51,736 nt of DNA from Bacilli bacterium (GCA_017432665.1 JAFRIS010000019.1:1-51736); one strand, 5' to 3'; shown: positions 3,113-50,501, counted from the first letter of the stretch. Numbers and translations: made by a program. Notes: generated by a model from the letters alone, not told the origin.

Positions 3113-3838
3113 CTACTTTTTATAGATAGTAATTGTTTCAATATAATAATTATCTATTATTTCTTGTTTTTCCTCTAACCATCTATTTCTATCAATAATT
3201 TTTTTCAAAAAATAAAGTCCTATACCATGATTTTTCCCCTTAGTTGTTATTCCTTTTTCAAATCTATTATTAACTATACTACTTCTTTTAAAAGTATTGG
3301 ATATAACTATATTAACTTTATCTTTTAATTCATATATTTCTAGAACAATATTTTTCTTTCTGCTTATTTTAGCTGCATCTATAGCATTATCATATATTAT
3401 TCCTATGACTTTAGTTAAAATAGATATTTGCCTATTATTAAGCTTTTCTATTATGCTTTTATCATTAATATTTATAGATATTTCAACATTAATTTTATTT
3501 TTTTGAGCAACAATAGTTTTATAATAGATAATTCCTTTTAAGGCTCCTTTAGGGAAATCTTTTAGTTTTATAACTATCTCATTATTAATACTAATGTTTT
3601 CATTTATTATCTCTTTAATTTTAGTTTTTACTTCTTTTTCATTTGATAATTCAAATAATACTGCTAATTGATTCTTATATTCATGTCTAATAAATTGTTC
3701 TCTTTCTATCCATTCTCCAAATTTTTGAATATCAACAAGTAACATATTATATTCTTGCGATAATCTATTATATTTATTTCTATAATTAGTATATATTAGC
3801 ACTATAAATACAAGACCAATAATCCTTATTATTAGCAC
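3113..3838 (-). CDS. Orphan single-TM GHKL histidine kinase-like protein (AgrC/ComD-type core)
   Basis: GTG start behind AAGGAG. There is one N-terminal TM helix (IIRIIGLVFIVLIYT). H-box-like FIRHEYKNQL, N-box IIYDNAIDAA and G-box KGKNHGIGLYFLKKI are present. No response regulator is adjacent. Confidence 0.6.
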   Translation of the reverse strand: MLIIRIIGLVFIVLIYTNYRNKYNRLSQEYNMLLVDIQKFGEWIEREQFIRHEYKNQLAVLFELSNEKEVKTKIKEIINENISINNEIVIKLKDFPKGALKGIIYYKTIVAQKNKINVEISININDKSIIEKLNNRQISILTKVIGIIYDNAIDAAKISRKKNIVLEIYELKDKVNIVISNTFKRSSIVNNRFEKGITTKGKNHGIGLYFLKKIIDRNRWLEEKQEIIDNYYIETITIYKK

Positions 3839-3924
3839 TTTACCTATCTCCTTTTTGAGATACGCAATATAATATAAGACTTAAATTATATTCACACATC
3901 TATTATTAGAATATCATTATTTTT

Positions 3925-3954
3925 TGTAAATTAAAAGAACACCTTTGTGTTCTT
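3925..3954 (-). terminator. Intrinsic terminator after tagO
   Basis: Minus strand reads AAGAACAC-AAAG-GTGTTCTT then TTTAATTT. The stem overlaps the tagO stop codon. Confidence 0.7.
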
Positions 3955-5023
3955 AATTTTTATGAAATAATCTTTTCTTTTTGATATTACTTTTATCATA
4001 AATAATAGTAGTATGAAGTACAAACCAAATAACTATGATAAAGATTATAATATATAGAATTTGCCCAATAATTGGATCCTTTAATGTATAGAAAATTGAT
4101 GCCGCTGCGAAAAGAATATTAATTGCATAAATTATTAAAACTGTAGTTCTCTGTGAGAAATTCATTCCTAATAATTGATGATGTAAATGTTCTTTATCTG
4201 CTTTAAACGGCGGTTGTCCTTTTAATAATCTTCTAATAATAGCAAATAATGTATCTAATATTGGTATTCCTAGGATTGTTACTGGCACGAAGAACGATAT
4301 TAAAGCCGGTCCTTTAAACTCTAACAATGTTATTACAGCAATAATAAAGCCTAAGAATGTTACACAGTCACCAGCAAATATCTTAGCTGGATAAAAATTA
4401 TGTACTAAGAAACCTAAAGTAGCTCCTAACATAATTAATGTTAAAACCATAACTAAACTTCCTGCTCTTCCTTGATAGAATCCAATAATGGCAATAGTAA
4501 TAAAGAAAATAGTACATATTCCACCACTTAGTCCATCAAGGCCATCGATTAAGTTAATTATATTAGTACACGCTACAATAAATAAAATTGTAATTGGATA
4601 AGCCAAAATACCGAAATCAAAAGAAAATCCAAAAGCAGTAATATTATTTAATAATATTCCACCATAGAAAACTATTACCATTGCAGCTGCTAAATGTCCT
4701 AGTAATTTATATAAAGCTCTGATTGATCTAATATCATCAATAATACCTGTTAGAATGATAATAAAACTACCTATCAAGATTGAATTCATTCTAATACTTT
4801 GTTCTCCAAAAAGCATATATCCTAATAGAAAAGATAAGAATATTCCTAAAGCTCCTAATTTAGGAGTTATTTTTTTATGAATATGTCTATGACCTTCTTC
4901 AGTTCTAGGTACATCTAAAGCTCCTATATGATTGGCAATTTTTTTCATTAAGAACATGATAGCAGCTGAAAACAAAAAAGTAATTAAAACTATCTTAGAA
5001 GCTGCTAATATTTGTAATTTCAT
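3953..5023 (-). CDS. tagO: Glycosyltransferase family 4, undecaprenyl-phosphate GlcNAc-1-phosphate transferase (TagO/WecA-like)
   Basis: 356-aa polytopic membrane protein with the MraY/WecA motif NLIDGLDGLSGG and a HHxLL segment (KEHLHHQLLGM). Confidence 0.85.
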   Translation of the reverse strand: MKLQILAASKIVLITFLFSAAIMFLMKKIANHIGALDVPRTEEGHRHIHKKITPKLGALGIFLSFLLGYMLFGEQSIRMNSILIGSFIIILTGIIDDIRSIRALYKLLGHLAAAMVIVFYGGILLNNITAFGFSFDFGILAYPITILFIVACTNIINLIDGLDGLSGGICTIFFITIAIIGFYQGRAGSLVMVLTLIMLGATLGFLVHNFYPAKIFAGDCVTFLGFIIAVITLLEFKGPALISFFVPVTILGIPILDTLFAIIRRLLKGQPPFKADKEHLHHQLLGMNFSQRTTVLIIYAINILFAAASIFYTLKDPIIGQILYIIIFIIVIWFVLHTTIIYDKSNIKKKRLFHKN

Positions 5024-5061
5024 AGTATTTCACTTCTTTCTAATAAAATTATATCAAAATA

Positions 5062-5092
5062 AGAAAAAAAAAACCAATTTTTATTGGTTTTC
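5062..5092 (-). terminator. Intrinsic terminator after mreB
   Basis: Minus strand reads AAACCAAT-AAAA-ATTGGTTT followed by about 11 U. The stop codon lies in the hairpin. Confidence 0.8.
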
Positions 5093-6076
5093 TTCTAATA
5101 ATTTTATGTTGTTTAGTAATATTCCTGTTCCTTCAGCTACACAAGTAAGTGGTGTTTCTGCTATTAATACAGGTATTGTTAATTCTTCTTCTAGCACTTC
5201 AATTAATCCTGTTAGTAATGACCCTCCGCCTGTTAGAATTACACCTTTTTCCACAATGTCTGCGGATAATTCTGGTGGAGTCTTCTCTAAAACATTTTTG
5301 CATTCTTTAACTATTTTTTTGATTCCTTCTTCCATTGCTACTTTAGTTTCATCCTGAGTTATTTCAATAGCTTTTGGAAGTCCTGTAAGTAAATCTCTTC
5401 CTTTTACTTCTAACTTTTCTTTTTTACTTGGTTTATAAACATTCGCAAAATTAATCTTAATATCTTCAGCTGTTTTTTCTCCTATTAATAATTTATATTT
5501 TTCTTTAATATATTTAATAATTTCTTGATCTAGGGCATTACCAGCAGTTCTAACCGATGATGAAGCTACAATACCATTTAGCGATAATACAGCAATATCT
5601 GTAGTTCCTCCACCAATATCTAGTACCATGTTAGCAGTAGGTTTAGAAATATCCATTCCTGCTCCAATAGCAGCTACTTTAGGTTCTTCTTCTATATAAA
5701 CTTTTCTAGCTCCAGTTTGTTCAGCAGCTTCCCTAATAGCATTCTTTTCTACTTGTGTAATATTAGTAGGACAACAAATTAAAATTCTTGGTCTAAAGAA
5801 CAGATTACGAGCTTTAATTTTCTTGATAAAAGAATTTAGCATTATTTCGGTTAATTCAAAGTCGGCAATTACCCCATCTTTCATAGGTTTAATAGCCTTT
5901 ACTTTTTCTGGTGTTTTTCCTAACATTTCTTTTGCTTCTTCACCGACAGCAATAACACTTTTACTTTCAGTATCAATAACTACAATACTAGGTTCATTTA
6001 AAACTACTCCCCTACCTTTAACATATATTAATACATTAGCAGTACCCAAATCTATTCCTATATCTTTTGCTGGCAT
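5081..6076 (-). CDS. mreB: Rod shape-determining actin homolog MreB/Mbl
   Basis: MPAKDIGIDLGTANVLIYVKGRGVVLNEPSIV and DIGGGTTDIAV. I moved the start to the ATG at 6076 behind GGAAGGA, because the longer track start (6115) runs into the upstream terminator. Confidence 0.92.
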   Translation of the reverse strand: MPAKDIGIDLGTANVLIYVKGRGVVLNEPSIVVIDTESKSVIAVGEEAKEMLGKTPEKVKAIKPMKDGVIADFELTEIMLNSFIKKIKARNLFFRPRILICCPTNITQVEKNAIREAAEQTGARKVYIEEEPKVAAIGAGMDISKPTANMVLDIGGGTTDIAVLSLNGIVASSSVRTAGNALDQEIIKYIKEKYKLLIGEKTAEDIKINFANVYKPSKKEKLEVKGRDLLTGLPKAIEITQDETKVAMEEGIKKIVKECKNVLEKTPPELSADIVEKGVILTGGGSLLTGLIEVLEEELTIPVLIAETPLTCVAEGTGILLNNIKLLEENQ

Positions 6077-6115
6077 ATTATCAGTCCTTCCATCACTTAT
6101 TTTAACATAAAACAT

Positions 6116-6141
6116 AATAAAAAAAAGAGAAAATTCTCTTT
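6116..6141 (-). terminator. Intrinsic terminator after the small membrane-protein gene
   Basis: Minus strand reads AAAGAGAA-TT-TTCTCTTT then TTTTTATT. Confidence 0.6.
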
Positions 6142-6338
6142 TAAATAAACTTTATTGAATTAAACAAATCCATTATAAAATTAGTTACTAAATAAATTAG
6201 TGATACTCCTAATAGAAAATAGAATACTGTCGCTTGAACAACTTTATTTTTTTTAAATATTTTATTAATATTTACTGAATCAAATGACCAAATAACTAAT
6301 ACTGTAACTACGATATATAAAAAGAATTTACCTGTCAT
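6141..6338 (-). CDS. DUF1146 (YwzB-like) small membrane protein
   Basis: 65 aa with two TM helices. SVNINKIFKKNKVVQATVFYFLL resembles B. subtilis YwzB ALNIEKLIKPNRVVQARLL as I recall it. Confidence 0.65.
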   Translation of the reverse strand: MTGKFFLYIVVTVLVIWSFDSVNINKIFKKNKVVQATVFYFLLGVSLIYLVTNFIMDLFNSIKFI

Positions 6339-6777
6339 TGCTATTTTCCTCGTACTCAGTTATTTTATTGATTCTTCTCATATGTTTTTCTAAATTAGAA
6401 AACGGTGTATTAATAAAAGTCTTTACTATTTCTACTGCTTCTTCTTTAGGCGTTTTTTCTCCAAAAGCAACTATATTTGAATCATTATCTTCTCTAGTAT
6501 ATTTTGCTTCTTCACTATTAGATACTTTAGCACAACGTACTCCTTTTACTTTGTTACAAGCAATACTAATACCTATACCAGATCCACAAATAGCTACTCC
6601 AAAGTCTGCTCCTCCAGTTTTTATTAATTCTCCTAACATAAAAGCGTAATCAGGATAATCTACTGAGTCTTCATAATCAGTCCCTAAATCAATTACTTCA
6701 TATTCTTTTTCTAATTCTTTTTTTAAATACTCTTTTAATTTATATCCTCTATGATCATTAGCAATACCTATCTTCAT
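6328..6777 (-). CDS. rpiB: Ribose-5-phosphate isomerase B
   Basis: MKIGIANDHRGYKLKEYL and CGSGIGISIACNK. The start is set at the ATG at 6777 behind GGGTGG. Confidence 0.9.
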   Translation of the reverse strand: MKIGIANDHRGYKLKEYLKKELEKEYEVIDLGTDYEDSVDYPDYAFMLGELIKTGGADFGVAICGSGIGISIACNKVKGVRCAKVSNSEEAKYTREDNDSNIVAFGEKTPKEEAVEIVKTFINTPFSNLEKHMRRINKITEYEENSNDR

Positions 6778-6793
6778 TTTACCACCCATCTAA

Positions 6794-6802
6794 ATTATAA
6801 CA
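6794..6802 (-). promoter_or_regulatory. Extended -10 (TGTTATAAT) upstream of rpiB
   Basis: Exact TGTTATAAT on the minus strand between the terminator of the giant gene and the rpiB SD. The resulting leader would be very short. Confidence 0.5.
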
Positions 6803-6805
6803 TAA

Positions 6806-6838
6806 ACCAAATAAAAAGAAACAGAAACCTGTTTCTTT
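6806..6838 (-). terminator. Intrinsic terminator of the 1018-aa gene
   Basis: Minus strand reads AAAGAAACAG-GTTT-CTGTTTCTTT then TTTATTT, starting 4 nt after the stop. Confidence 0.85.
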
Positions 6839-6841
6839 ATA

Positions 6842-9800
6842 TTATTTATATAGCCATCTATAAGTTGAACTACATCCTGTGCTTGCTGCACCCCAACCTG
6901 TCCATTGTGAGCCACATGCATATCCACAACAGCCAACATCAGTACACTTAACACTACGCGCTCCAAAATGTTCGTCCCTACACTTTTTACACTTATTTAC
7001 TGTTACTGAACAACAACACCAACAACTATCTGCATATTTACCACAAATAGTACAGCCACTCTTCTTGCATGCTGTATAACTTGCTTTAGTAGTACATTTC
7101 CTTGACGTACTTGATGACATACCACACCACGTACAACTTGTGCCTTCTTTCCATTTTTTCTTCTTTTTACCGCAGCAAGTATTTGTACAAGTAGCAGCAA
7201 CATTCTTCTTAATATATTTATATTGTTTGTATGCCGTTATATTTACTGTACATGTCATAGAATTACCAACATTATCTTTGACCGTATAACTCTTATCTTT
7301 CTTTAATCCTGTATCCTTATGATCACTTCCACCTGGACAAGATACTACTCCTGATCCCCCATGATCACCACAACTATATTTTACCGTTACTCCATCTGTA
7401 GTATTTTGATGTGATTTATCTTTACTACAACTTGGTTTTTGCAAATCAACATAGATTTGAGCAGTGAAAGCAGCACAAGTTCGTACATTATCTGCATTAT
7501 CATAAATATTAAGGGCACCATAGTCTTTAGTTTTATAAGTATGCCCTGATTGAGCAAATGATTCAGAAAAGTAAACAGTTTTTTTACAACCACTATTTTT
7601 TACACTACTTGCAGAATCACGGCATTCACGAGTTATAGTTGTTCCTTTTCTACGCCAACTGCTACTTTGTCCACCTATATAGCAAGTTGGTTTTTTATAA
7701 TCTGAGTGAACTGTTTTATTAGCTGCACAAGTTCGTACATTTCCAGCCAAATCTTTAACAGAACCTCCAGCTCCTAGTCCATCAGCTCCAGCATTACTAA
7801 CATATAATTCTTTGTTATAAGTTCCATTGGATGGACTTCCATATATTGTAGAGAAAGTAGTTCTTCCTGTACATCCACTATTTTTATTTGATGCAGTCTC
7901 TTCACAAGTGGCTGTAACTGTAACTGTTTCTTGATTTCCAGATGAATCAAGTCCTATCCATCCAGCAGAATTTTCTCCTGGTGCAGTTTTTACTACATTA
8001 CATTTAGGCAATGTATAATCTACCCATACCTTTGTTACATCTGAAGGAGTTGATATATTACCAGCATTATCAACTGTTCTAAATGATATTTCATTTTTTC
8101 CTTCCAAATCTGTATTAAATAATATTGATCCTCCATTTTTGTTTGTAACACTTTTTGATGAATCATATTTTGCATCGATAGTATGTTCAAAACGATTCCA
8201 TCCAGACAAGTCTTCATCTAAAGTTTGATCCCATAAATCTGCTCCTCTATCTTTCTTATTGTTGTCACTTATAACAGTAGCAGAAGCAAATTGAACTTTT
8301 GACCAGTTACCACCTGCAGTTGGTGTATAGTTACTATATTCTACTTTAGGTGTCTTTGGCGGAGTTTTATCAATATTAGCTTTTATTCTCAATGTAACTG
8401 TGTTTCCTGCTTTATCTTTAACTGTTAATAATCCTTGTCTTCTTCCTTCTTTATTGAATCCAACTAAAATTACTTTCTTCTTAGTTCCACAGTTTCCCTT
8501 CCATTCTTCTGTTGAAACGGTAGAGGCATATCTATCATAAGCAGTTCCTGTACCTAATGTGCCATACACATCAGTATTAGGATTAGTAACATATGGTACA
8601 TTAGTTTCCCATTTCCAACTATCTAAGTGAATATTATCTGATATTTCTATTTTATAAATTACTCCATTTGGATATCTAGCATTATTCATCCAACCACCAA
8701 TTAAGTTATCATATTCACTAGTTTCTATAGTTCCGGTTCTAGATGAAGTATCATCATTAATTACCAAAGTTCCTTTAGAATAAGTATTTGTTGTATTTTC
8801 CTGTTTTCCATCTGCAGTTGATTTATAAGCTCCTAGAACATTTATTGTAGGTAGAGTTTTATCTACATTAACTTTTACACGACAACTATCTGGTGTAGGA
8901 TCTAAGTCACAAATACTATATTCATCTAATAGACTTCCTTGCAAGTTAAAATTTCCTGCATTATCCTGAACTTGAATATATCCATATTCAGCATCTGGTT
9001 GATGAGTATTTGGCCATGTTCTAGCAAATGTTGGTCTTATACAACCACTTCCATTACCATCATCACAAGTAACAGTTATAGTTCTACTCTTTTCTGGACT
9101 ATCTTTATTAATCCATGTATCTGATTCTCCAACTTTTTTATTAGTACATTTAGGATTATCAGGATCTTTTAATGTTCCTTGAGAAGGTGATTTTTCAATC
9201 ATACAACCTTTTTCATTAGTAACTTCTACTCTTGCACTAATATAGGTAGCAGTTGTAACATCTATATATTCACTAATTGGTCTAGTAACAGTTATATATT
9301 CCTCACCATTACCATTTAAAGCTCCAGAATTATATGCTTCATGTAAATCTGGTTCCCCTTCAGTTTTAACATAAATTGAATAATTATAACTTAAAATTTT
9401 AAGGTCTTCTCCATTTTCATCTTCCCCACCACTTATTTTTATAAATAGTGTTGCTTCTCTAAAATTATTTAACAATATATCACTACTTATTTCTTGTAGA
9501 CTACTATCCGTAAAATATATTTGAGGTTCTGAAGGTTTTGGAGTACATTCTGTCTCTTCAGGTGGTTCACCATCACCATTTACTTCATACTTATAATGAG
9601 TATTTGTTTCTTTAGAAACAACAACATATCCTCCTCTATCTTCTTTAAGATATTTCTTTTCAGCTAAAAATTCCGCAGTTAATGTTACTTTTCCACCAAC
9701 GTTTTTTGGTAAAGCGCTTTTATTAGCTTGCATATAGCTTTCTGCAGCCATTTTTAACGTGTTTTCATACATTTCTTTGTCTTCTTTATCTGCATTATTT

Positions 9801-9898
9801 CTAACATGTGAAACACTAGCGATTGCAATTACGCTTAAAATTCCTAGTATCACTATTGCAGCTAAAAGTTCGATCATTGTAAATCCTTTGTTTTTCAT
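6842..9898 (-). CDS. Giant modular type IV pilin-like protein (prepilin-type N-terminal signal, repeat modules, Cys-rich tail)
   Basis: The N-terminus MKNKG|FTMIELLAAIVILGILSVIAIASV has Gly-1, Phe+1, Glu+5 and a hydrophobic helix. A D-x-[AV]-[GD]-N motif occurs six times. Twenty of the last 115 residues are Cys. Confidence 0.8.
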   Translation of the reverse strand: MKNKGFTMIELLAAIVILGILSVIAIASVSHVRNNADKEDKEMYENTLKMAAESYMQANKSALPKNVGGKVTLTAEFLAEKKYLKEDRGGYVVVSKETNTHYKYEVNGDGEPPEETECTPKPSEPQIYFTDSSLQEISSDILLNNFREATLFIKISGGEDENGEDLKILSYNYSIYVKTEGEPDLHEAYNSGALNGNGEEYITVTRPISEYIDVTTATYISARVEVTNEKGCMIEKSPSQGTLKDPDNPKCTNKKVGESDTWINKDSPEKSRTITVTCDDGNGSGCIRPTFARTWPNTHQPDAEYGYIQVQDNAGNFNLQGSLLDEYSICDLDPTPDSCRVKVNVDKTLPTINVLGAYKSTADGKQENTTNTYSKGTLVINDDTSSRTGTIETSEYDNLIGGWMNNARYPNGVIYKIEISDNIHLDSWKWETNVPYVTNPNTDVYGTLGTGTAYDRYASTVSTEEWKGNCGTKKKVILVGFNKEGRRQGLLTVKDKAGNTVTLRIKANIDKTPPKTPKVEYSNYTPTAGGNWSKVQFASATVISDNNKKDRGADLWDQTLDEDLSGWNRFEHTIDAKYDSSKSVTNKNGGSILFNTDLEGKNEISFRTVDNAGNISTPSDVTKVWVDYTLPKCNVVKTAPGENSAGWIGLDSSGNQETVTVTATCEETASNKNSGCTGRTTFSTIYGSPSNGTYNKELYVSNAGADGLGAGGSVKDLAGNVRTCAANKTVHSDYKKPTCYIGGQSSSWRRKGTTITRECRDSASSVKNSGCKKTVYFSESFAQSGHTYKTKDYGALNIYDNADNVRTCAAFTAQIYVDLQKPSCSKDKSHQNTTDGVTVKYSCGDHGGSGVVSCPGGSDHKDTGLKKDKSYTVKDNVGNSMTCTVNITAYKQYKYIKKNVAATCTNTCCGKKKKKWKEGTSCTWCGMSSSTSRKCTTKASYTACKKSGCTICGKYADSCWCCCSVTVNKCKKCRDEHFGARSVKCTDVGCCGYACGSQWTGWGAASTGCSSTYRWLYK

Positions 9899-9915
9899 AC
9901 TCTCACCTATCTTAA

Positions 9916-9944
9916 ATTATATCTTATGTATATATTTTTGTAAA
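9916..9944 (-). promoter_or_regulatory. Sigma-A-type promoter of the 1018-aa gene
   Basis: Minus strand reads TTTACA, a 17-nt spacer, then TATAAT. The AGGTGAGA SD follows at 9908-9901 and the ATG at 9898. Confidence 0.7.
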
Positions 9945-9954
9945 GAATATTAAG

Positions 9955-9981
9955 AACAAAAAAAAAGACTTTTTTAGTCTT
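9955..9981 (-). terminator. Intrinsic terminator after rpmE
   Basis: Minus strand reads AAGACT-AAAAA-AGTCTT then TTTTTTTTGTT. The first arm includes the rpmE stop codon. Confidence 0.7.
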
Positions 9982-10186
9982 CTTTCTTTGTAAATCCATA
10001 TTTTTTATTAAACTTATCCACTCTACCAGCACGTGATGCTCTACTTTGTTTTCCTGTATAGAAAGGATGACATTTAGAACAAATTTCAACATTGATTTCT
10101 GGTTTTGTTGATTTACAAGTAAATGTTTCTCCACAAGCACATGTTACAGTACAATCTACTACTTCTGGATGTATATCTTTTTTCAT
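9974..10186 (-). CDS. rpmE: 50S ribosomal protein L31, Zn-ribbon (C+) form
   Basis: [27 protein letters not shown]...[12 protein letters not shown]. Confidence 0.95.
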
Positions 10187-10286
10187 ATTATCTCTCCTTC
10201 CGCCATGACAAATTTTTTTGCCATAGTTAATAAACGCGTAATTAATATATCAAATAATCTTTAATTTTTCAAGTTTTTTCGAATAT

Positions 10287-11543
10287 TTATATCTCTTTAA
10301 TTACTATTTTAGCTCCTACTGCTTTTAACTTTTCAACTATTTGCTCATATCCTCTTAAAATATGTTCCGCATTAGTAATAGTTGTTTTTCCTTCAGCAAG
10401 TAATGCCGCAGCTACCATGGCAGCTCCTGCTCTTAAATCAGTAGCTACTACTTCTGTACCTTTTAAATCTGTAGGCCCTACTACAGTAGCAGTTCTATTT
10501 TTAACTGTAATATCTGCTCCTAATTTATTTAAGTATGGGATATGCATAAATCTATTTTCCCAAATTGTTTCTTCTACTTTTGATTTTCCATTAGCTTTAG
10601 TTAATAAAACAGTAAATGGTTGTTGCAAGTCTGTTGCAAAACCAGGATAAACAGCTGTTTTAATATTAGTTGGTTTTAATTCTTTAGGAGAGTTTAAAAC
10701 AATAACATAATCAGTTCCTATTTCTAACTCAATACCCATTTCTTCTAGTTTTCTAAGCAATGAATCAACATGTTCAGGAATAACATTATCTACTTTTAAA
10801 TTCTTTCCACATAAAGCTGCAATAATTATATAAGTACCTGCTTCTATACGATCTGGAATAACTTCATGGAAACACTTTCCTAACTTTTCTACTCCTTCAA
10901 TTTTAATGGTTGAAGTACCTGCACCAGTAATTTTAGCCCCCATCAAATTTAAGAATGTAGCTACATTTACTATTTCAGGTTCTTTAGCAGCATTATCAAT
11001 TGTAGTAGTTCCTTTCGCTTTAACAGCTGCTAACATAATATTAATTGTTGCTCCTACTGAAGCTATATCTAAATAAATATTAGCTCCATGTAATTCTTCA
11101 GCTTCTACTATATATTTGTTTTTTTCATTTGTAACTTTAGCTCCTAGAGCTTCAAATCCTTTTAAATGTAAATCAATTGGTCTAGCTCCAATAGAACATC
11201 CTCCTGGAAAATACATTACTGCTTTTTTAAATTTACCAAGTAAAGCTCCCATAAAATAGTAAGAAGCTCTTAATTTTTTAGAATATTCTTCTTCTATTTC
11301 AACATTTTCCATATCTTGAGGGTTAATAACTAAACTTTCAGTTGAACGATTAACTTTTACTTTTAATTGCTTCAAAATATCACATAATGCATCTGTATCT
11401 GTTATCTCTGGTACATTGCAAATAGTAGCTTCTTCATCAGTTAAAATAGCAGCTGGTATTAAAGCAACTGTGGCATTTTTAGCACCACTGATTCTAATTG
11501 AACCATTTAACTCTCTTGCTCCCTCAATTTCTATTACTTTCAT
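10287..11543 (-). CDS. murA: UDP-N-acetylglucosamine 1-carboxyvinyltransferase
   Basis: 418 aa with GSIRISGAKNATVALIPAAIL and the active-site loop PGGCSIGARPIDLHLKG. Confidence 0.95.
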   Translation of the reverse strand: MKVIEIEGARELNGSIRISGAKNATVALIPAAILTDEEATICNVPEITDTDALCDILKQLKVKVNRSTESLVINPQDMENVEIEEEYSKKLRASYYFMGALLGKFKKAVMYFPGGCSIGARPIDLHLKGFEALGAKVTNEKNKYIVEAEELHGANIYLDIASVGATINIMLAAVKAKGTTTIDNAAKEPEIVNVATFLNLMGAKITGAGTSTIKIEGVEKLGKCFHEVIPDRIEAGTYIIIAALCGKNLKVDNVIPEHVDSLLRKLEEMGIELEIGTDYVIVLNSPKELKPTNIKTAVYPGFATDLQQPFTVLLTKANGKSKVEETIWENRFMHIPYLNKLGADITVKNRTATVVGPTDLKGTEVVATDLRAGAAMVAAALLAEGKTTITNAEHILRGYEQIVEKLKAVGAKIVIKEI

Positions 11544-14459: not shown

Positions 14460-14903
14460 TTATACTTCTAGTTCTAATTCATCTTCATCGATGATAACTA
14501 AGTCCTTTAATTCTTCATTAGTTTCATCGTCATAGTCTTCATCATCAGTATCGTCAAAGCTGTCTTCTTCAATTTCTTCCTCTTCTTCTTTTTCAAGAGA
14601 TTCTTCTTCATCTTCTTCGTCTTCTTCATCAGCAATCTTAACTACTTTATCTGAAGTATGATTACTTCTTAAATCCCATTTACCATTGTCTAATAAGATA
14701 AATCTCTTATCTGTTGATAAAGATGTATAAAAATCTGCGACTTTATTTTCAAAAGTACTTTCTGGTAATTCCATTAAACTAATTACTTTTTTAAATAAAT
14801 CAGCAGTATTCAATTTTCTTTTTCCATTCTCCATTACCATATAAGCAACATCTTTGCTAGATAATGATTCAAGTTCTTCTTTCTTTAATGCTCTTACACT
14901 CAT
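14460..14903 (-). CDS. rpoE: RNA polymerase delta subunit
   Basis: N-terminal HARE-HTH-like domain (FYTSLSTDKRFILLDNGKWDLR) followed by a long acidic D/E tail. Confidence 0.85.
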   Translation of the reverse strand: MSVRALKKEELESLSSKDVAYMVMENGKRKLNTADLFKKVISLMELPESTFENKVADFYTSLSTDKRFILLDNGKWDLRSNHTSDKVVKIADEEDEEDEEESLEKEEEEEIEEDSFDDTDDEDYDDETNEELKDLVIIDEDELELEV

Positions 14904-19557: not shown

Positions 19558-20204
19558 TCTATTTCTTTTAAATTATTATCACTTAAGAACTTGTTTGTTT
19601 TAGAAAAAGGTCTACTACCAAAGAATCCATTTCTAGCAGAAAATGGTGATGGATGAGCTGACTCAATAATTAAATGTCTAGAGTTAGTAATTAAACCTCT
19701 TTTATTTCTCGCATAAGATCCCCATAATATAAATACTACTGGTTCTTTTTTATTATTAAGTATTTTTATAACATCATCAGTAAAAGTCTCCCAACCTTTA
19801 TCTTTATGAGATGTTGGTTTATGTTCTTCTACTGTTAGTACTGCATTTAATAGTAAAACCCCTTGTTTAGCCCATGGCTTTAAGGAGTTACTCTTAGGAA
19901 AAGGTATTCCTAAATCACTTTCTAATTCTTTAAATATGTTCTGTAATGATGGTGGCTTTAAGACTTCATTACTTACTGAAAAGGATAGTCCTTCAGCTTG
20001 ATTAGGACCATGATATGGATCTTGCCCTAAGATTACTACTTTTACATTATCAAAAGAAGTATATCTAAAAGCATTAAATACTTCGTTTTGTTTAGGATAA
20101 ATAATTTTATGCTTATACTCTTCTTTTACAAATTCCAAGAGATTTTTGAAATATTCCTTCTGATATTCATCTTTTAAAAGAGCATCCCAATCATTTCCTA
20201 TCAT
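19542..20204 (-). CDS. ung: Uracil-DNA glycosylase
   Basis: VILGQDPYHGPNQAEGLSFSV and AHPSPFSA. The start is set at ATG 20204 behind AGGTGA. Confidence 0.93.
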   Translation of the reverse strand: MIGNDWDALLKDEYQKEYFKNLLEFVKEEYKHKIIYPKQNEVFNAFRYTSFDNVKVVILGQDPYHGPNQAEGLSFSVSNEVLKPPSLQNIFKELESDLGIPFPKSNSLKPWAKQGVLLLNAVLTVEEHKPTSHKDKGWETFTDDVIKILNNKKEPVVFILWGSYARNKRGLITNSRHLIIESAHPSPFSARNGFFGSRPFSKTNKFLSDNNLKEIDWSVE

Positions 20205-20205
20205 A

Positions 20206-20820
20206 TTAGTCACCTATTTCATATTCTTTTAGTACTAGTTTTATATCTTCTACATTATCAGGTTTAACAGTTCTACCCTTAATTCCAAGAGAATTAGCTG
20301 TCCTAATATTATCCTCTCTATCATCTATAAATAAGCTTTCTTCCGGAATTATTTTATATTTATCAATTAAATACTTATATATACCCTCATAAGGTTTAAT
20401 CATGTGTATTTTATATGACAACACTACTCCGTCAAATAAGTATTCTATATCTTTTATAACTTTTTCATAACTTTTTTCATTAGTATTAGACAATAAATAT
20501 ACTTTATAACCTTTATTTTTTAAATTTTTAATTATTTCAATCACTTCTTGTTGAATATATCTATATTCATAAAAATTATTCATAAAATTTATTACTAAAT
20601 CTTTATATTTATTGTTACTTCGATCATTTATAATATTAGTAATTTCTTCTCCGGAAAGATAACCAGTATCAATAAGACCTAAACCTCCCCATTCTGGAGA
20701 ATTCACAACACTATTTATTAAGAAATCTTGTTCTTCCTGTGAAGAAGTAAACTTTGGAACTATTTCTTTGGCATTAAAAGTCATTAATACATTACCAAAA
20801 TCAAATATTATATTTTTCAT
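20206..20820 (-). CDS. HAD-superfamily hydrolase
   Basis: Motif I-like IIFDFGNVL, LLSNTN and FIDDREDN. The start is set at ATG 20820. Confidence 0.75.
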   Translation of the reverse strand: MKNIIFDFGNVLMTFNAKEIVPKFTSSQEEQDFLINSVVNSPEWGGLGLIDTGYLSGEEITNIINDRSNNKYKDLVINFMNNFYEYRYIQQEVIEIIKNLKNKGYKVYLLSNTNEKSYEKVIKDIEYLFDGVVLSYKIHMIKPYEGIYKYLIDKYKIIPEESLFIDDREDNIRTANSLGIKGRTVKPDNVEDIKLVLKEYEIGD

Positions 20821-31373: not shown

Positions 31374-31395
31374 GAAAAAAATACCTAAAGGTATT
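31374..31395 (-). terminator. Intrinsic terminator of the VirD4-like gene
   Basis: Minus strand reads AATACC-TTTA-GGTATT then TTTTTTC, starting at the stop codon. Confidence 0.65.
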
Positions 31396-32749
31396 ATTTT
31401 TCTTCATATATTTTAATTATATTAGTTTCTCTTACAGGAATTGTTGCCTTTTTTGCTTCATAGCCCCAATCTATTTCATAATCTGGTAACAGTTTAGTTT
31501 TAAAAGGCATCATTCTTGGTAGTAAGATAATTGCCGAAAAAATACTAAGTGTTTTTAATTCAGAAACTGAAATTAACGGTTCTTCTTTGTTGTTTACTAT
31601 ATGTGTTCCACAATTTTTAGATATTTCTTCTAATGTATAGATATCATTTGATAACAAATAAATAGTATTTCCAAAGCACATCTTTAATATTTCTACATCT
31701 TCTTTGGAATACATATTTGCTAGGTGTACAAAGCTTTGAATAGCAACTGTAACTCTGATATTTATCGATCTACAGTATCCTAATTTTAGAGCAAAGTCTT
31801 TAATAGGTATCAAAGAATCGAATTCATCTAATAATAAGTTTAATCTCTTTTCTTTATTACCATATAAAGATACTGCATCTATTACTTGATTAGCAAATAA
31901 AGGTATTAAATTACGGCAAAAACTACTAACACCAGTCACAATAAAGATAGCTGTCTTATCATTACTTATTGTAGACATTTCAAAATCACTAGTTGAAAGC
32001 ATATTAGCTAAGTTTTCTTTAGATAAATATCTCTCAATTTTTTGATTAAATACTGAAATGATACTTCCTCTAGTTTCAGGTGGAGCTTGCAATGTTCCTG
32101 CTAATTTCATGAACATTACAGGATCTTTTTCTACTTTCTTTAAGAATTGTTCACTAGAAGTTTTATCCAATAATGCATTAGCTAGTTTTGCAACGCTATT
32201 TAAATTAATTTCCTCTTCTTTAGCAGTTTTAAATAAATATAATACTATTCCAGTAAAATAATTTATTGATGAATTAACCCAAAAAGGATCTGCTTCACTC
32301 TTTTGTGCTTCTGCAAGTAAATAATATCCTAAGTCTTCAATTAACTCTATTGCTTTATCAGGATTTCCTTCTTTATATTGTTTGTGAGCTAAAGTTAGAG
32401 GATTCCAATTATTTCCTTTACGTGAATCTTCAAAATCAATTACGATATTTTTATAACCTTCATCTTCTAATTTTTGAGCTGTTTTTTCATAAATTTCACC
32501 TTTAGGATCATTTATTACTATTGATTCTCCTGCCATCATAGCTAACTTTAAGATTGGCAAAATGACAGCTTGTGTCTTTCCACTACCTGTACTACCTATC
32601 AACAAATTGTGTGCCTCATAAGTATCTATGTATAAATACTTATCATCATACATTACAGGTAATCCAGATTTTTCTACTCCTGTTTCTAGATTTACCGCTA
32701 CTGTTTTTTTCTGAATATGTTCTCTAGTTGCCCATTCAGAATAACTCAT
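31394..32749 (-). CDS. TM-less VirD4/TraG-family (type IV coupling protein-like) ATPase
   Basis: Walker A LIGSTGSGKTQAVILP, Walker B RLNLLLDEFDSL, and DPFWVNSSINYFTG. The hydrophilic N-terminus MSYSEWATREHIQKK has no TM helices. The start is set at ATG 32749 behind GGAGGGAAG. Confidence 0.7.
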   Translation of the reverse strand: MSYSEWATREHIQKKTVAVNLETGVEKSGLPVMYDDKYLYIDTYEAHNLLIGSTGSGKTQAVILPILKLAMMAGESIVINDPKGEIYEKTAQKLEDEGYKNIVIDFEDSRKGNNWNPLTLAHKQYKEGNPDKAIELIEDLGYYLLAEAQKSEADPFWVNSSINYFTGIVLYLFKTAKEEEINLNSVAKLANALLDKTSSEQFLKKVEKDPVMFMKLAGTLQAPPETRGSIISVFNQKIERYLSKENLANMLSTSDFEMSTISNDKTAIFIVTGVSSFCRNLIPLFANQVIDAVSLYGNKEKRLNLLLDEFDSLIPIKDFALKLGYCRSINIRVTVAIQSFVHLANMYSKEDVEILKMCFGNTIYLLSNDIYTLEEISKNCGTHIVNNKEEPLISVSELKTLSIFSAIILLPRMMPFKTKLLPDYEIDWGYEAKKATIPVRETNIIKIYEEK

Positions 32750-32818
32750 ACTCTTCCCTCCTTCTGACATTATTAAATCACAAAAAATTACATACTATTT
32801 AAACAATAACGACTTTTG

Positions 32819-49999: not shown

Positions 50000-50054
50000 T
50001 TTTATTATGATATTGTTATTTTGAAAACGGAAAGTTTTCATGAAGGGGGATATT

Positions 50055-50501
50055 ATGAAATATGAAATTAATAGAGGTACTCTAGCTATAGTACCTCAAG
50101 AAGATGAAAGAAGTTTGGTATATGAAGATAATGAAAGTTATGTAGTAGATCAAAAACCATTTAGTATTATGGAAGAAAGTTGTAAATACTTTGGTAGTAC
50201 TTATGAAGGTAGAAAGAATGGTGCTAGAAATATACTTGGTGCTGAATATAAAGTACCTATAGTTATTGAAGATAGTAATAATTTAATTGTTTTTCCTACT
50301 ACATCACCACAATCAGAAGATTGTGTATGGATATCTTTAAAAAGAGTAAAAAGAATAGAAAAAATGGATTATAATAATACTAAAGTTATATTTGATAATG
50401 ATAAAGAAATTATAGTTAATTGTTCATATTACACAATAGAAAATCAATTATCCAGAGCTTCTAGATTAGATATTATCTTAAGAAATCATAAAAATAGTTG
50501 A
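50055..50501 (+). CDS. comK: Competence transcription factor ComK family
   Basis: NRGTLAIVPQED, KPFSIMEESCKYFGSTYEGRKNGA, VPIVIEDSNNLIVFPTTSP and CVWISL parallel B. subtilis ComK (VNGATIAVLPEE, KPLQIVDRSCRFFGSSYAGRKAGT, PPIMVDPSNQIFLFPTLSS, CGWISH). The start is set at ATG 50055 behind AAGGGGGA. Confidence 0.8.
   Translation: MKYEINRGTLAIVPQEDERSLVYEDNESYVVDQKPFSIMEESCKYFGSTYEGRKNGARNILGAEYKVPIVIEDSNNLIVFPTTSPQSEDCVWISLKRVKRIEKMDYNNTKVIFDNDKEIIVNCSYYTIENQLSRASRLDIILRNHKNS

Follow-up and report, generated by a model that had tools for sequence, protein, structure and literature searches.

Sequence analysis predicts a giant modular type IV pilin with a strain-variable cysteine-rich tail in the rpmE-rpiB slot of an uncultured Bacilli lineage

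Modular pilins, where a pilin module at the N-terminus is joined by a linker to at least one other module not specific to the biology of type IV filaments (T4F), number more than 1,200 in 264 architectures, and one of them is 860 residues long (PMC8179133). They are the current explanation for many functions of simple type IV filaments, and the few that have been studied are small. Here, we describe a gene for a predicted prepilin of 1018 amino acids (aa), referred to below as the giant pilin, in a stretch of 51,736 nucleotides from Bacilli bacterium (GCA_017432665.1, JAFRIS010000019.1:1-51736); this whole stretch is called the window. An earlier note on this DNA, made from the sequence alone, had pointed to an open reading frame (ORF) of this length with a prepilin-like start, and translation confirmed it. 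The modular-pilin concept is already known; what is new is the size of the protein, its orphan position in a core-gene slot, its extreme divergence and its swappable Cys-rich cassette.

The nearest precedents are PilB and PilC of Streptococcus sanguinis, which carry a von Willebrand factor A (vWA) module and a lectin module, respectively (Raynaud et al. 2021, PMC8179133; PMC9934059). Like the giant pilin, they combine a class III signal, a small pilin module and a short linker with a bulky non-pilin body, come from a monoderm (Firmicutes) host, and are proposed to be displayed at or near the filament tip for adhesion. They differ in having a few hundred residues and one recognisable effector domain and in being encoded in the pil locus, whereas the giant pilin has its 1018 aa, seven modules and a Cys-rich tail without a known family, lies as an orphan between rpmE and rpiB, is hypervariable between strains, and has a function that is predicted from sequence. 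The T4b tip minor pilins CofB of enterotoxigenic Escherichia coli (ETEC) and TcpB of Vibrio cholerae and the tip pseudopilin GspK of the type II secretion system (T2SS) likewise consist of an N-terminal pilin module followed by extra beta-rich domains; their roles are filament initiation or capping and the presentation of a surface for binding (PMC8179133). However, they belong to diderm bacteria, are operon-encoded and reach about half the size of the giant pilin, and no match to them was found in sequence, Foldseek or profile searches. The 860-residue modular pilin of Candidatus Falkowbacteria, with 12 repeats (PMC8179133), has the same order of an N_methyl motif and many repeated modules, and both types occur in uncultured bacteria with genomes that are reduced, probably so for the hosts of the giant pilin. 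In contrast to the giant pilin, its repeat is IPR013211, it has no Cys-rich variable tail, and no conserved chromosomal slot has been described for it. Chains of beta-sandwiches that serve as an extended stalk are also known from the immunoglobulin (Ig) domains of Enterococcus PrgB (8beg), from Marinomonas MpIBP (5irb) and from Aureispira GhpA (9flw), and a DxAGN-type strand motif is common to the giant pilin, Big_13 and OmpL47-like domains (Leptospira OmpL47-type). Such Ig-like adhesins are anchored by sortase, by a retention module of the type I secretion system or in the outer membrane, and not by a pilin module. We found no description of the giant pilin family, or of pili in its lineage, in the literature.

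The giant pilin gene begins with an ATG codon, and the N-terminus of its product, MKNKGFTMIELLAAIVILGILSVIAIASV, reads MKNKG followed by FTMIE, i.e., a short positively charged leader ending in Gly, then Phe at position +1 and Glu at position +5. The class III prepilin signal described in the earlier note was recovered in both of the motif searches with hidden Markov models that had been proposed there: Pfam N_methyl (PF07963) scored 28.9 bits (cut-off 21.2) over aa 2-26, and TIGR02532 scored 30.7 bits (cut-off 16.3). The single hydrophobic segment of the protein is formed by aa 3-34. Neither an LPxT[GANS] motif nor a C-terminal hydrophobic segment was found in the protein, which ends with ...STYRWLYK and does not have the make-up of a sortase-anchored (LPXTG) adhesin. 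Within the family described below, Glu+5 is present in all 99 aligned members, Gly-1 in 91 of 96 (the remaining five have Ala) and Phe+1 in 95 of 96. Glu+5 of type IV pilins is required for filament assembly and not for cleavage, and its invariance therefore argues for assembly over mere anchoring.

Similarity to pilins extends beyond the signal. Among type IV pilins of solved structure, a profile of the family matched Geopilin (1.4e-9), PilE1 of S. sanguinis (2.8e-8), PilA, MshA and residues 1-96 of gonococcal PilE; profile position 8, which corresponds to Phe6, was aligned to mature residue 1 of the solved pilins, and alpha1-N was aligned to their residues 1-50+. When the pilin module was compared by hhalign with operon-encoded PilA proteins, whose genes adjoin pilB/pilT/pilC/pilD in Bacillaceae and Paenibacillus, the match (99.4%, E = 2.8e-21) covered 109 columns and reached far past the hydrophobic helix. 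AlphaFold modelled aa 1-125 with a predicted local distance difference test score (pLDDT) of 89, and the full-length model gave the same secondary structure: helix 8-58 is predicted at pLDDT 90-98, followed by strands at 70-74, 91-96 and 102-107 and a short helix. Among close homologues, residues 31-110 are 45-55% identical, compared with 30-41% for the adjoining module D1, and Y55, P64, G68, L78 and Y104 are invariant. This better conservation suggests that aa 31-110 form a constrained, folded pilin domain. The homology of the N-terminal module to pilins is established at the sequence level, and the invariant Glu+5 together with the conserved, putatively folded pilin domain would favour incorporation into a filament over simple anchoring.

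Judged by sequence, the giant pilin is a member of a conserved family and not a one-off. This unnamed family comprises at least 103 protein clusters (E ≤ 0.001) with a median length of 1030 aa and a maximum of 1264 aa; nearly all clusters carry PF07963, and none has been named. Sixteen clusters are full-length matches with 37-51% identity, and family proteins are 30-50% identical overall. The few members without a prepilin motif are fragments or were miscalled at an internal Met, and a minority have precomputed Ig-like Pfam matches. An exact-peptide scan of GTDB genomes with the giant pilin itself returned no relative. A scan with the full alignment was dominated by the generic helix pattern of pilins, and a sub-alignment of residues 240-520 recovered true family members. 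The hosts found in these genome scans are uncultured gut metagenome-assembled genomes (MAGs) deposited as Bacilli, Bacillales, Erysipelotrichaceae, Tenericutes and Mycoplasma sp.

In related genomes, as the earlier note had proposed to check, homologues do occupy the slot between rpmE and rpiB: it is kept in two same-genus contigs, L003 and L004 (the latter identical to L087, from the MAG CAMNCL01). The flanking proteins of these contigs are 77-97% identical to those of the window (ArgS 91%, PrfA 97%, MurA 91%, RpmE 93%, MreB 88-89%, Hpf 95%, SecA 93-94%), whereas the giant pilin is only 44-48% identical. This combination of a fixed slot and a fast-diverging giant pilin is a new finding.

A second kind of variation was seen between strains, and it is concentrated in the tail. 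The last 121 residues of the giant pilin contain 20 of its 40 cysteines. We compared the window protein with the allele P0111, which comes from a different sample and lies in the same rpmE-rpiB slot. Every module up to residue 904 is 93-100% identical between the two, while residues 905-985 are 40.7% identical with 12 gap columns, and the following 33 residues are again 88% identical. At the DNA level, the two alleles are about 98-99% identical throughout, flanks included, outside the tail block and a small hotspot described below; at window positions 7202-6948 the identity drops with sharp edges to 22-35 matches per 60 alignment columns, with indels. A block of about 80 codons in the tail has been replaced between two otherwise near-identical alleles, which had not been described before. 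The same pattern was seen over a larger distance: when P0002, P0003 and P0005, the three closest homologues, are compared with the window protein, identity is 32-37% over residues 898-975 and 60-74% in the flanking segments, with aa 986-1018 at 60-70%. A third sample (L002) has an allele identical to that of the window.

The predicted tail structure is of low confidence (pLDDT < 50 at aa 902-974 and 979-996) up to the last strand, which reaches pLDDT 71-84; W999 is invariant. A search with the tail alone matched no Pfam family, and among 1.84 billion representative proteins no real relative of the tail was found outside the family; one extra-family match, P0104, was discarded as a spurious low-complexity protein. 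In Neisseria PilE, a hypervariable D-region lies between two Cys and is varied by recombination with silent pilS copies. The giant pilin resembles it in the block-wise replacement of a C-terminal segment bounded by Cys, against a constant N-terminal pilin part and constant flanks. Unlike in PilE, the window contains no silent cassettes (the best match to the tail DNA elsewhere in its 51.7 kb is 22 nt), and the variable block belongs to a separate tail some 800 residues away from the pilin module. Among the 111 proteins compared, none is closer to the P0111 cassette than the window allele (39%), and a donor was not found in this set.

Between the pilin module and the tail, the full-length AlphaFold model (mean pLDDT 83, predicted template modelling score 0.53) shows a small sheet, a linker and seven modules, which are beta-sandwiches by prediction only; we set the module limits on this model. 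The predicted protein has the make-up of a modular pilin, with its pilin module (1-110) followed by a Pro-rich linker, the seven beta-sandwich modules and the Cys-rich tail. In the family alignment, the linker varies and contains gaps. The motif D-x-[AV]-[GD]-N occurs exactly six times (aa 312, 495, 610, 716, 800 and 875), compared with 0.083 occurrences expected from composition (P(≥6) = 4e-10), and its positions D, A and N are invariant across 22 homologues. Of the roughly 900 aa of repeat modules postulated earlier, the six motifs stand, but the repeats are not uniform. Only D2, D5, D6 and D7 are mutually homologous (hhalign 75-98%; D2 against D5, D6 and D7 75-96%, D5-D6 98.3% with E = 1.9e-14, D6-D7 95.5%), and they have in common the pattern P-x-C ... 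C-x-D ... SGC ... DxAGN-x-x-x-C ... VD-x-x-x-P. For D3 and D4, the DxAGN strand is the only shared element, and D1 is unrelated to the other modules by hhalign. D1 is also the most variable module between species, at the 30-41% identity given above, and D7 is 65-74% identical to P0002, P0003 and P0005.

Searches with the body returned generic matches. D4 weakly matched the OmpL47-type beta-barrel domain (25.8 bits, cut-off 40) and Big_13 (11.6, cut-off 27); all body domain models remained below threshold, and no catalytic domain was seen. Foldseek with the full model found only generic multi-Ig arrays (E = 1e-10 to 1e-6, template modelling scores 0.1-0.3), namely macroglobulin (MG) domains of alpha-2-macroglobulin and arrays known from adhesins and surface fibres: the grappling hook GhpA, the Ig domains of PrgB, the adhesin MpIBP and the HPI S-layer. 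Within D3, a second small strain-level hotspot was observed at window positions 8763-8822 (-), aa ~359-378 at the start of the module, where the two alleles read KSTADGKQENTT and KADENGKQANTT. Here, 46 of 60 bases are identical, compared with 56-60 for the remaining blocks when the replaced tail block is set aside, and the hotspot coincides with a loop in which the family alignment has gaps as well.

More distant family members are encoded elsewhere, adjoining tex, after recD2 or after rpmF, frequently together with another giant pilin and a small protein with a single transmembrane (TM) segment. Tandem giant pilins were observed in L006 (5276-9469 and 10001-13042; 1397 and 1013 aa) and in L094 (6025-9456 and 10001-13780; 1143 and 1259 aa). 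The small single-TM protein is encoded directly upstream of a giant pilin in L006 (9481-9978), L093 (9496-9990) and L094 (9479-9895). It has 138-165 aa, a conserved C-x(4,5)-C motif and no Pfam family, and could be a dedicated partner or chaperone. The window contains no equivalent of it; a 147-aa ORF at 14460-14903 was checked as a counterpart, and its acidic C-terminal tail, judged by eye, suggests an RNA-polymerase delta-subunit-like protein. CAMNCL01, from the genus of the window, has at least four pilin-type genes. Its giant pilins number at least three (1048, 1397 and 1013 aa), and a further pilin of 135 aa (L055) is an orphan among arginine-deiminase and ABC-transporter genes. A regular-expression (regex) scan detected 139 pilin-type N-termini on proteins of about 100 to 1400 aa in 86 loci, a count that is not a genome-wide rate because the loci had been selected by the pilin pattern. 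These include tandem arrays of paralogous pilins with near-identical N-termini: five copies of about 675 aa in L062 (3415-14200), five of about 146 aa in L025 (4662-7507) and four of about 165 aa in L051 (3958-6206). The unusual size that the earlier note had seen in the giant pilin needs qualifying, given these lengths of up to about 1400 aa in the MAG group and the published 860-residue example (PMC8179133).

Pilus machinery was looked for beside the pilin genes. A Walker-A regex combined with phmmer detected pilB, pilT, pilC and pilD beside classic Bacillaceae/Paenibacillus pilins and, in addition, only in L038 and L051. In L038, PilC (T2SSF) adjoins PilD (A24_N_bact and Peptidase_A24) according to Pfam, and in L051 a 397-aa T2SSE ATPase lies beside the four tandem pilins. 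A 728-aa Walker-A protein in L016 was considered as a machinery ATPase and rejected, as it is an ABC transporter. The T2SSE ATPase of about 397 aa has more than 575 relatives among pattern-matched GTDB genome stretches. Two scans were performed with PilB proteins of the lineage, and the best 80 loci of each were taken. By record title, nearly all of them are uncultured MAGs of Bacilli, Tenericutes or Mollicutes; for some the title gives no more than Firmicutes, Bacillota or bacterium, and for others it names a different taxon, probably in error. Among the best 80 loci of the first scan, PilD was found in the flank of 31 and PilC in that of 29, convergent with pilB. The clearest layout is that of L213 (OZ006994.1, a circular MAG of 1.26 Mb), where Pfam annotation places pilB, pilD and pilC at 3685-9917 beside trmK and sigA; pilD-pilC are convergent with pilB, whereas divergent from it lie genes for a 192-aa pilin and for a modular pilin of 551 aa (Bact_surface_Ig-like and an ALK_LTK Gly-rich domain). 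A Pfam scan of ten flanking ORFs of L213 showed neither PilM/N/O nor PilT. In eight MAGs, orphan pilins and pil machinery occur on separate contigs. On this sequence evidence, many related MAGs have a minimal pilB/pilC/pilD cluster, which co-occurs with orphan pilins at the level of the lineage. Several records among the loci (L013, L017, L024, L026, L036, L038, L108, L126, L182 and others) are titled Muribaculaceae, Bacteroidaceae, Oscillospiraceae or Ignavibacteriales; on low-GC pilin/pilB loci of the Bacilli type, such titles are probably taxonomic mislabels or binning errors.

Our preferred explanation, to which we assign a probability of roughly 55%, is that the giant pilin is a modular minor type IV pilin that displays a variable adhesin near the tip of a filament. 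Modelled on type IV filament biology and on the precedents of S. sanguinis PilB/PilC, CofB/TcpB and GspK, we infer how the protein may be processed, incorporated into a filament, placed at the tip, used as an adhesin and varied. The prepilin would be inserted into the membrane via its single hydrophobic helix; a prepilin peptidase of the PilD/ComC type would cut off MKNKG and methylate Phe6, and the pilin module of about 110 residues would dock via Glu+5 and alpha1 into a filament that is assembled by an ATPase of the PilB type and a platform of the PilC type, both with their genes outside this region. The subunit would reside at or near the tip, because a body of about 900 residues appears too bulky for the filament shaft, and the Pro-rich linker would let the seven-module stalk extend over about 30 nm (a rough estimate that assumes about 4 nm per module). 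The Cys-rich C-terminal cassette could then act as an exposed tip that binds a ligand or serves as an antigen, and replacement of the block of about 80 codons would make this tip differ from strain to strain. The idea of a tip or minor pilin adhesin had been raised before together with that of an unusual size; the predicted architecture and the modular-pilin concept fit the former, while long pilins proved not to be rare.

Several results weigh against this explanation. Neither pilB, pilC nor pilD was found within 10 kb of any examined family member. The Pfam annotation of the 51.7-kb window contains no T2SSE, T2SSF or Peptidase_A24, just as no pilus machinery had been noticed there at first sight. 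CAMNCL01, although of the same genus, is not among the best 80 loci of either ATPase scan, and no machinery locus from a close relative emerged when shared genes were compared (the best link, L144 with L055, reached 58-72%). The giant pilin stays below the cut-off of every named pilin or pseudopilin equivalog (ComGE 31 vs 49, ComGC 20.6 vs 75, ComGF 16.6 vs 80, ComGD 14.7 vs 70; GspG 24.4 vs 88.85, GspH 18.8 vs 80, GspI 15.3 vs 44.35, GspJ 12.2 vs 64.85), and its gene lies outside pil and com operons. Of the structural check of the N-terminal residues that had been suggested, the pilin-like secondary structure was borne out by prediction, but Foldseek with the small isolated N-terminal model gave no significant pilin match in the PDB (best E = 1.9). 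Finally, the tip-most pseudopilins known, GspK among them, lack Glu+5; its invariance in the giant pilin family argues against a role as the very first subunit.

Class III signals also occur on some archaeal surface proteins, and a possible but distinctly less probable explanation is that the giant pilin is a pilin-anchored surface fibre that never polymerises. Its class III signal, cleaved or not, would merely be a membrane anchor, pilin-type N-termini would be a general means of display, and the variable Cys-rich tip would be held beyond the cell wall on the stalk of seven modules. This agrees with the position of the gene as an orphan among core genes with its own promoter-like site and terminator, with the many pilin-type N-termini among the 139 that are scattered among unrelated genes or lie in tandem paralogue arrays, with the lack of an LPXTG or other anchor in the giant pilin, and with the estimated stalk length, which is about that needed to cross a Gram-positive wall. 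However, a simple anchor needs neither an invariant Glu+5 nor a conserved folded pilin domain (aa 31-110), the lineage retains an assembly ATPase and a platform besides the peptidase, and the characterised modular pilins of the same layout are filament subunits (PMC8179133).

The filament in question could also be a different one. As an accessory minor pilin of the Com pilus, the giant pilin would serve DNA capture or the binding of donor cells on a ComG-type filament under ComK control. The comK gene pointed out in the earlier note is indeed present, at 50040-50501 (+) according to Pfam, adjoining dnaN and recF in the origin region, and in the same-genus contig L003 a TfoX_N gene follows secA (19992-20285); the two together hint at a competence regulon in the lineage. 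ComGE is the best named NCBIfam match after the generic motif (E = 2e-7, 31 bits), and Bacilli have Com pili as their commonest type IV filament (PMC6916266, PMC12153270). We nevertheless consider this role very unlikely: all ComG models stay below their cut-offs and cover the N-terminal helix only, the gene lies outside a comG operon, between rpmE and rpiB, the ATPase of related MAGs adjoins pilC, pilD and modular pilins and not a comGA-GG array, and neither Pfam nor Foldseek detected a DNA-binding-like module in the body. With respect to the tail, its variation might be the product of a diversity-generating retroelement (DGR) or of other programmed mutagenesis, which would make the giant pilin a ligand-binding protein of the DGR type. 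Variation limited to a C-terminal block with sharp boundaries would suit this, and DGR targets are common in gut and reduced-genome bacteria. Yet the alleles differ by indels and at most positions of the block and not by adenine-specific substitutions, the tail is not predicted to adopt a C-type lectin or Ig fold, and the window, for which we rejected the idea, holds neither a copy of the tail DNA or template-like repeat longer than the 22-nt match nor an annotated reverse transcriptase. We give the DGR explanation almost no credence.

The modular minor pilin can be set in a wider picture, which is speculative and, taken as a whole, unlikely. In a clade of uncultured gut Bacilli with probably small genomes, the pilin module would be the general means of surface display, and one minimal pilB/pilC/pilD set would handle orphan pilins by the dozen, scattered and between 100 and 1400 aa long, among which the giant pilin would be the main variable adhesin or antigen with an exchanged Cys-rich tip of about 80 codons. 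If so, the partners in cassette exchange by recombination would be other alleles or silent copies at other genomic sites, exchange of the tip would change binding to partners or the host or allow escape from IgA or phage, and antigenic variation of the pilin type would have shifted from the pilin body to the end of the stalk.

The family is about twice the size of the modular pilins studied so far. It would probably escape catalogues built on domains, since neither the body of the giant pilin nor that of most members fits a recognised domain family. Its hosts are uncultured gut Bacilli. The rate contrast between the giant pilin and its flanks, i.e., extreme divergence in a fixed core-gene slot, and the sharply bounded variable cassette are as expected for an exposed, selected surface and suggest an interface with hosts, partner cells, antibodies or phages. 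The giant pilin offers a concrete test case for whether a filament can carry a passenger of about 100 kDa, and possibly a strain-typing marker for a prevalent gut lineage.

The features of the gene and its product are collected in Table 1. The promoter, the Shine-Dalgarno sequence and the terminator that had been read from the DNA were all found again. The promoter-like site is the best in the region 6600-10300, judged by consensus match alone. The stem-loop of the hairpin spans 6838-6815 with the T-run beyond, and it is the best such site in the region, where three hairpins with a T-run were detected compared with 0.9 expected from shuffles.

Table 1. Positions of the giant pilin gene, its transcription and translation signals and the predicted parts of its product in the window
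Feature	Position	Strand	Remarks
Promoter-like site, sigma-70 type, TTTACA-17-TATAAT	9916..9944	-	11/12 consensus matches
Shine-Dalgarno sequence AGGTGAGA	9901..9908	-	Read from sequence; stops 2 bases before the ATG at 9898
Giant modular prepilin gene (predicted)	6842..9898	-	1018 aa + stop
Pilin module, aa 1-110: helix 8-58, three strands, short helix (predicted)	9569..9898	-	AlphaFold, hhalign
Leader MKNKG, aa 1-5, predicted prepilin-peptidase cleavage after Gly5	9884..9898	-	N_methyl and TIGR02532 above cut-offs
Hydrophobic alpha1-N, aa 6-28, with Phe+1 and Glu+5	9815..9883	-	Sole hydrophobic segment; aligns to solved pilins
Pro/Glu-rich linker, about aa 108-125, GDGEPPEETECTPKPSEP	9524..9577	-	No secondary structure, lower pLDDT
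Module D1, aa 123-245, beta-sandwich without DxAGN motif	9164..9532	-	Predicted strands
Module D2, aa 246-350, motifs CDDGNGSGC, RTWPN, QDNAGN, VNVDKTLP	8849..9163	-	
Module D3, aa 351-515, larger beta-sandwich (predicted), motifs WMNN, WKWETN, KDKAGN	8354..8848	-	pLDDT >90
Module D4, aa 516-630, VDNAGN and VDYTLPKC	8009..8353	-	
Module D5, aa 631-735, KDLAGN and SDYKKPTC	7694..8008	-	
Module D6, aa 736-820, YDNADN and VDLQKPSC	7439..7693	-	
Module D7, aa 821-897, KDNVGN	7208..7438	-	Conserved among close homologues
Hypervariable Cys-rich cassette, aa 905-985	6944..7186	-	Allele comparison with P0111
Conserved C-terminal end, aa 986-1018, ...CCGYACGSQWTGWGAASTGCSSTYRWLYK	6845..6943	-	Final strand predicted 1011-1017
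Intrinsic-terminator-like hairpin, 10-bp stem, 4-nt loop, then T-run	6806..6838	-	

The gene is preceded by rpmE and followed by rpiB, DUF1146, mreB and Glycos_transf_4; rpmE, rpiB and mreB, which had been named as core genes at its sides, were recovered by Pfam annotation. Its G+C content at third codon positions (GC3) is 0.131 and lies within the range of its neighbours (0.105-0.147), and for this reason the gene looks native and not recently acquired; on the neighbour-like GC3 together with the conserved slot, we rejected recent horizontal acquisition. A TATAAT hexamer was observed between the terminator hairpin and the start codon of rpiB, within window positions 6790-6841. This would agree with a separate promoter for rpiB and with transcriptional insulation of the giant pilin gene at both ends.

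Elsewhere, the window contains housekeeping genes, the oriC region (dnaA, dnaN, recF, parB/soj, mnmE/gidA) and comK, and the regex scan detected no second pilin-like N-terminus in it. One other gene of the neighbourhood also diverges fast, and it is the only one besides the giant pilin gene: at 3113-3838 (-), it encodes a 241-aa GHKL/HATPase_c_5 protein that is 39-41% identical in the same-genus contigs, where the other flanking proteins are mostly about 90% identical. Kinases of this type include the peptide-sensing AgrC/ComD family. A further gene at 31394-32770 (-) encodes a 458-aa protein with the coupling-protein domains T4SS-DNA_transf, TrwB_AAD_bind and TraG-D_C; it sits among the housekeeping genes ychF and rpsF-ssb-rpsR, with no further conjugation genes in view.

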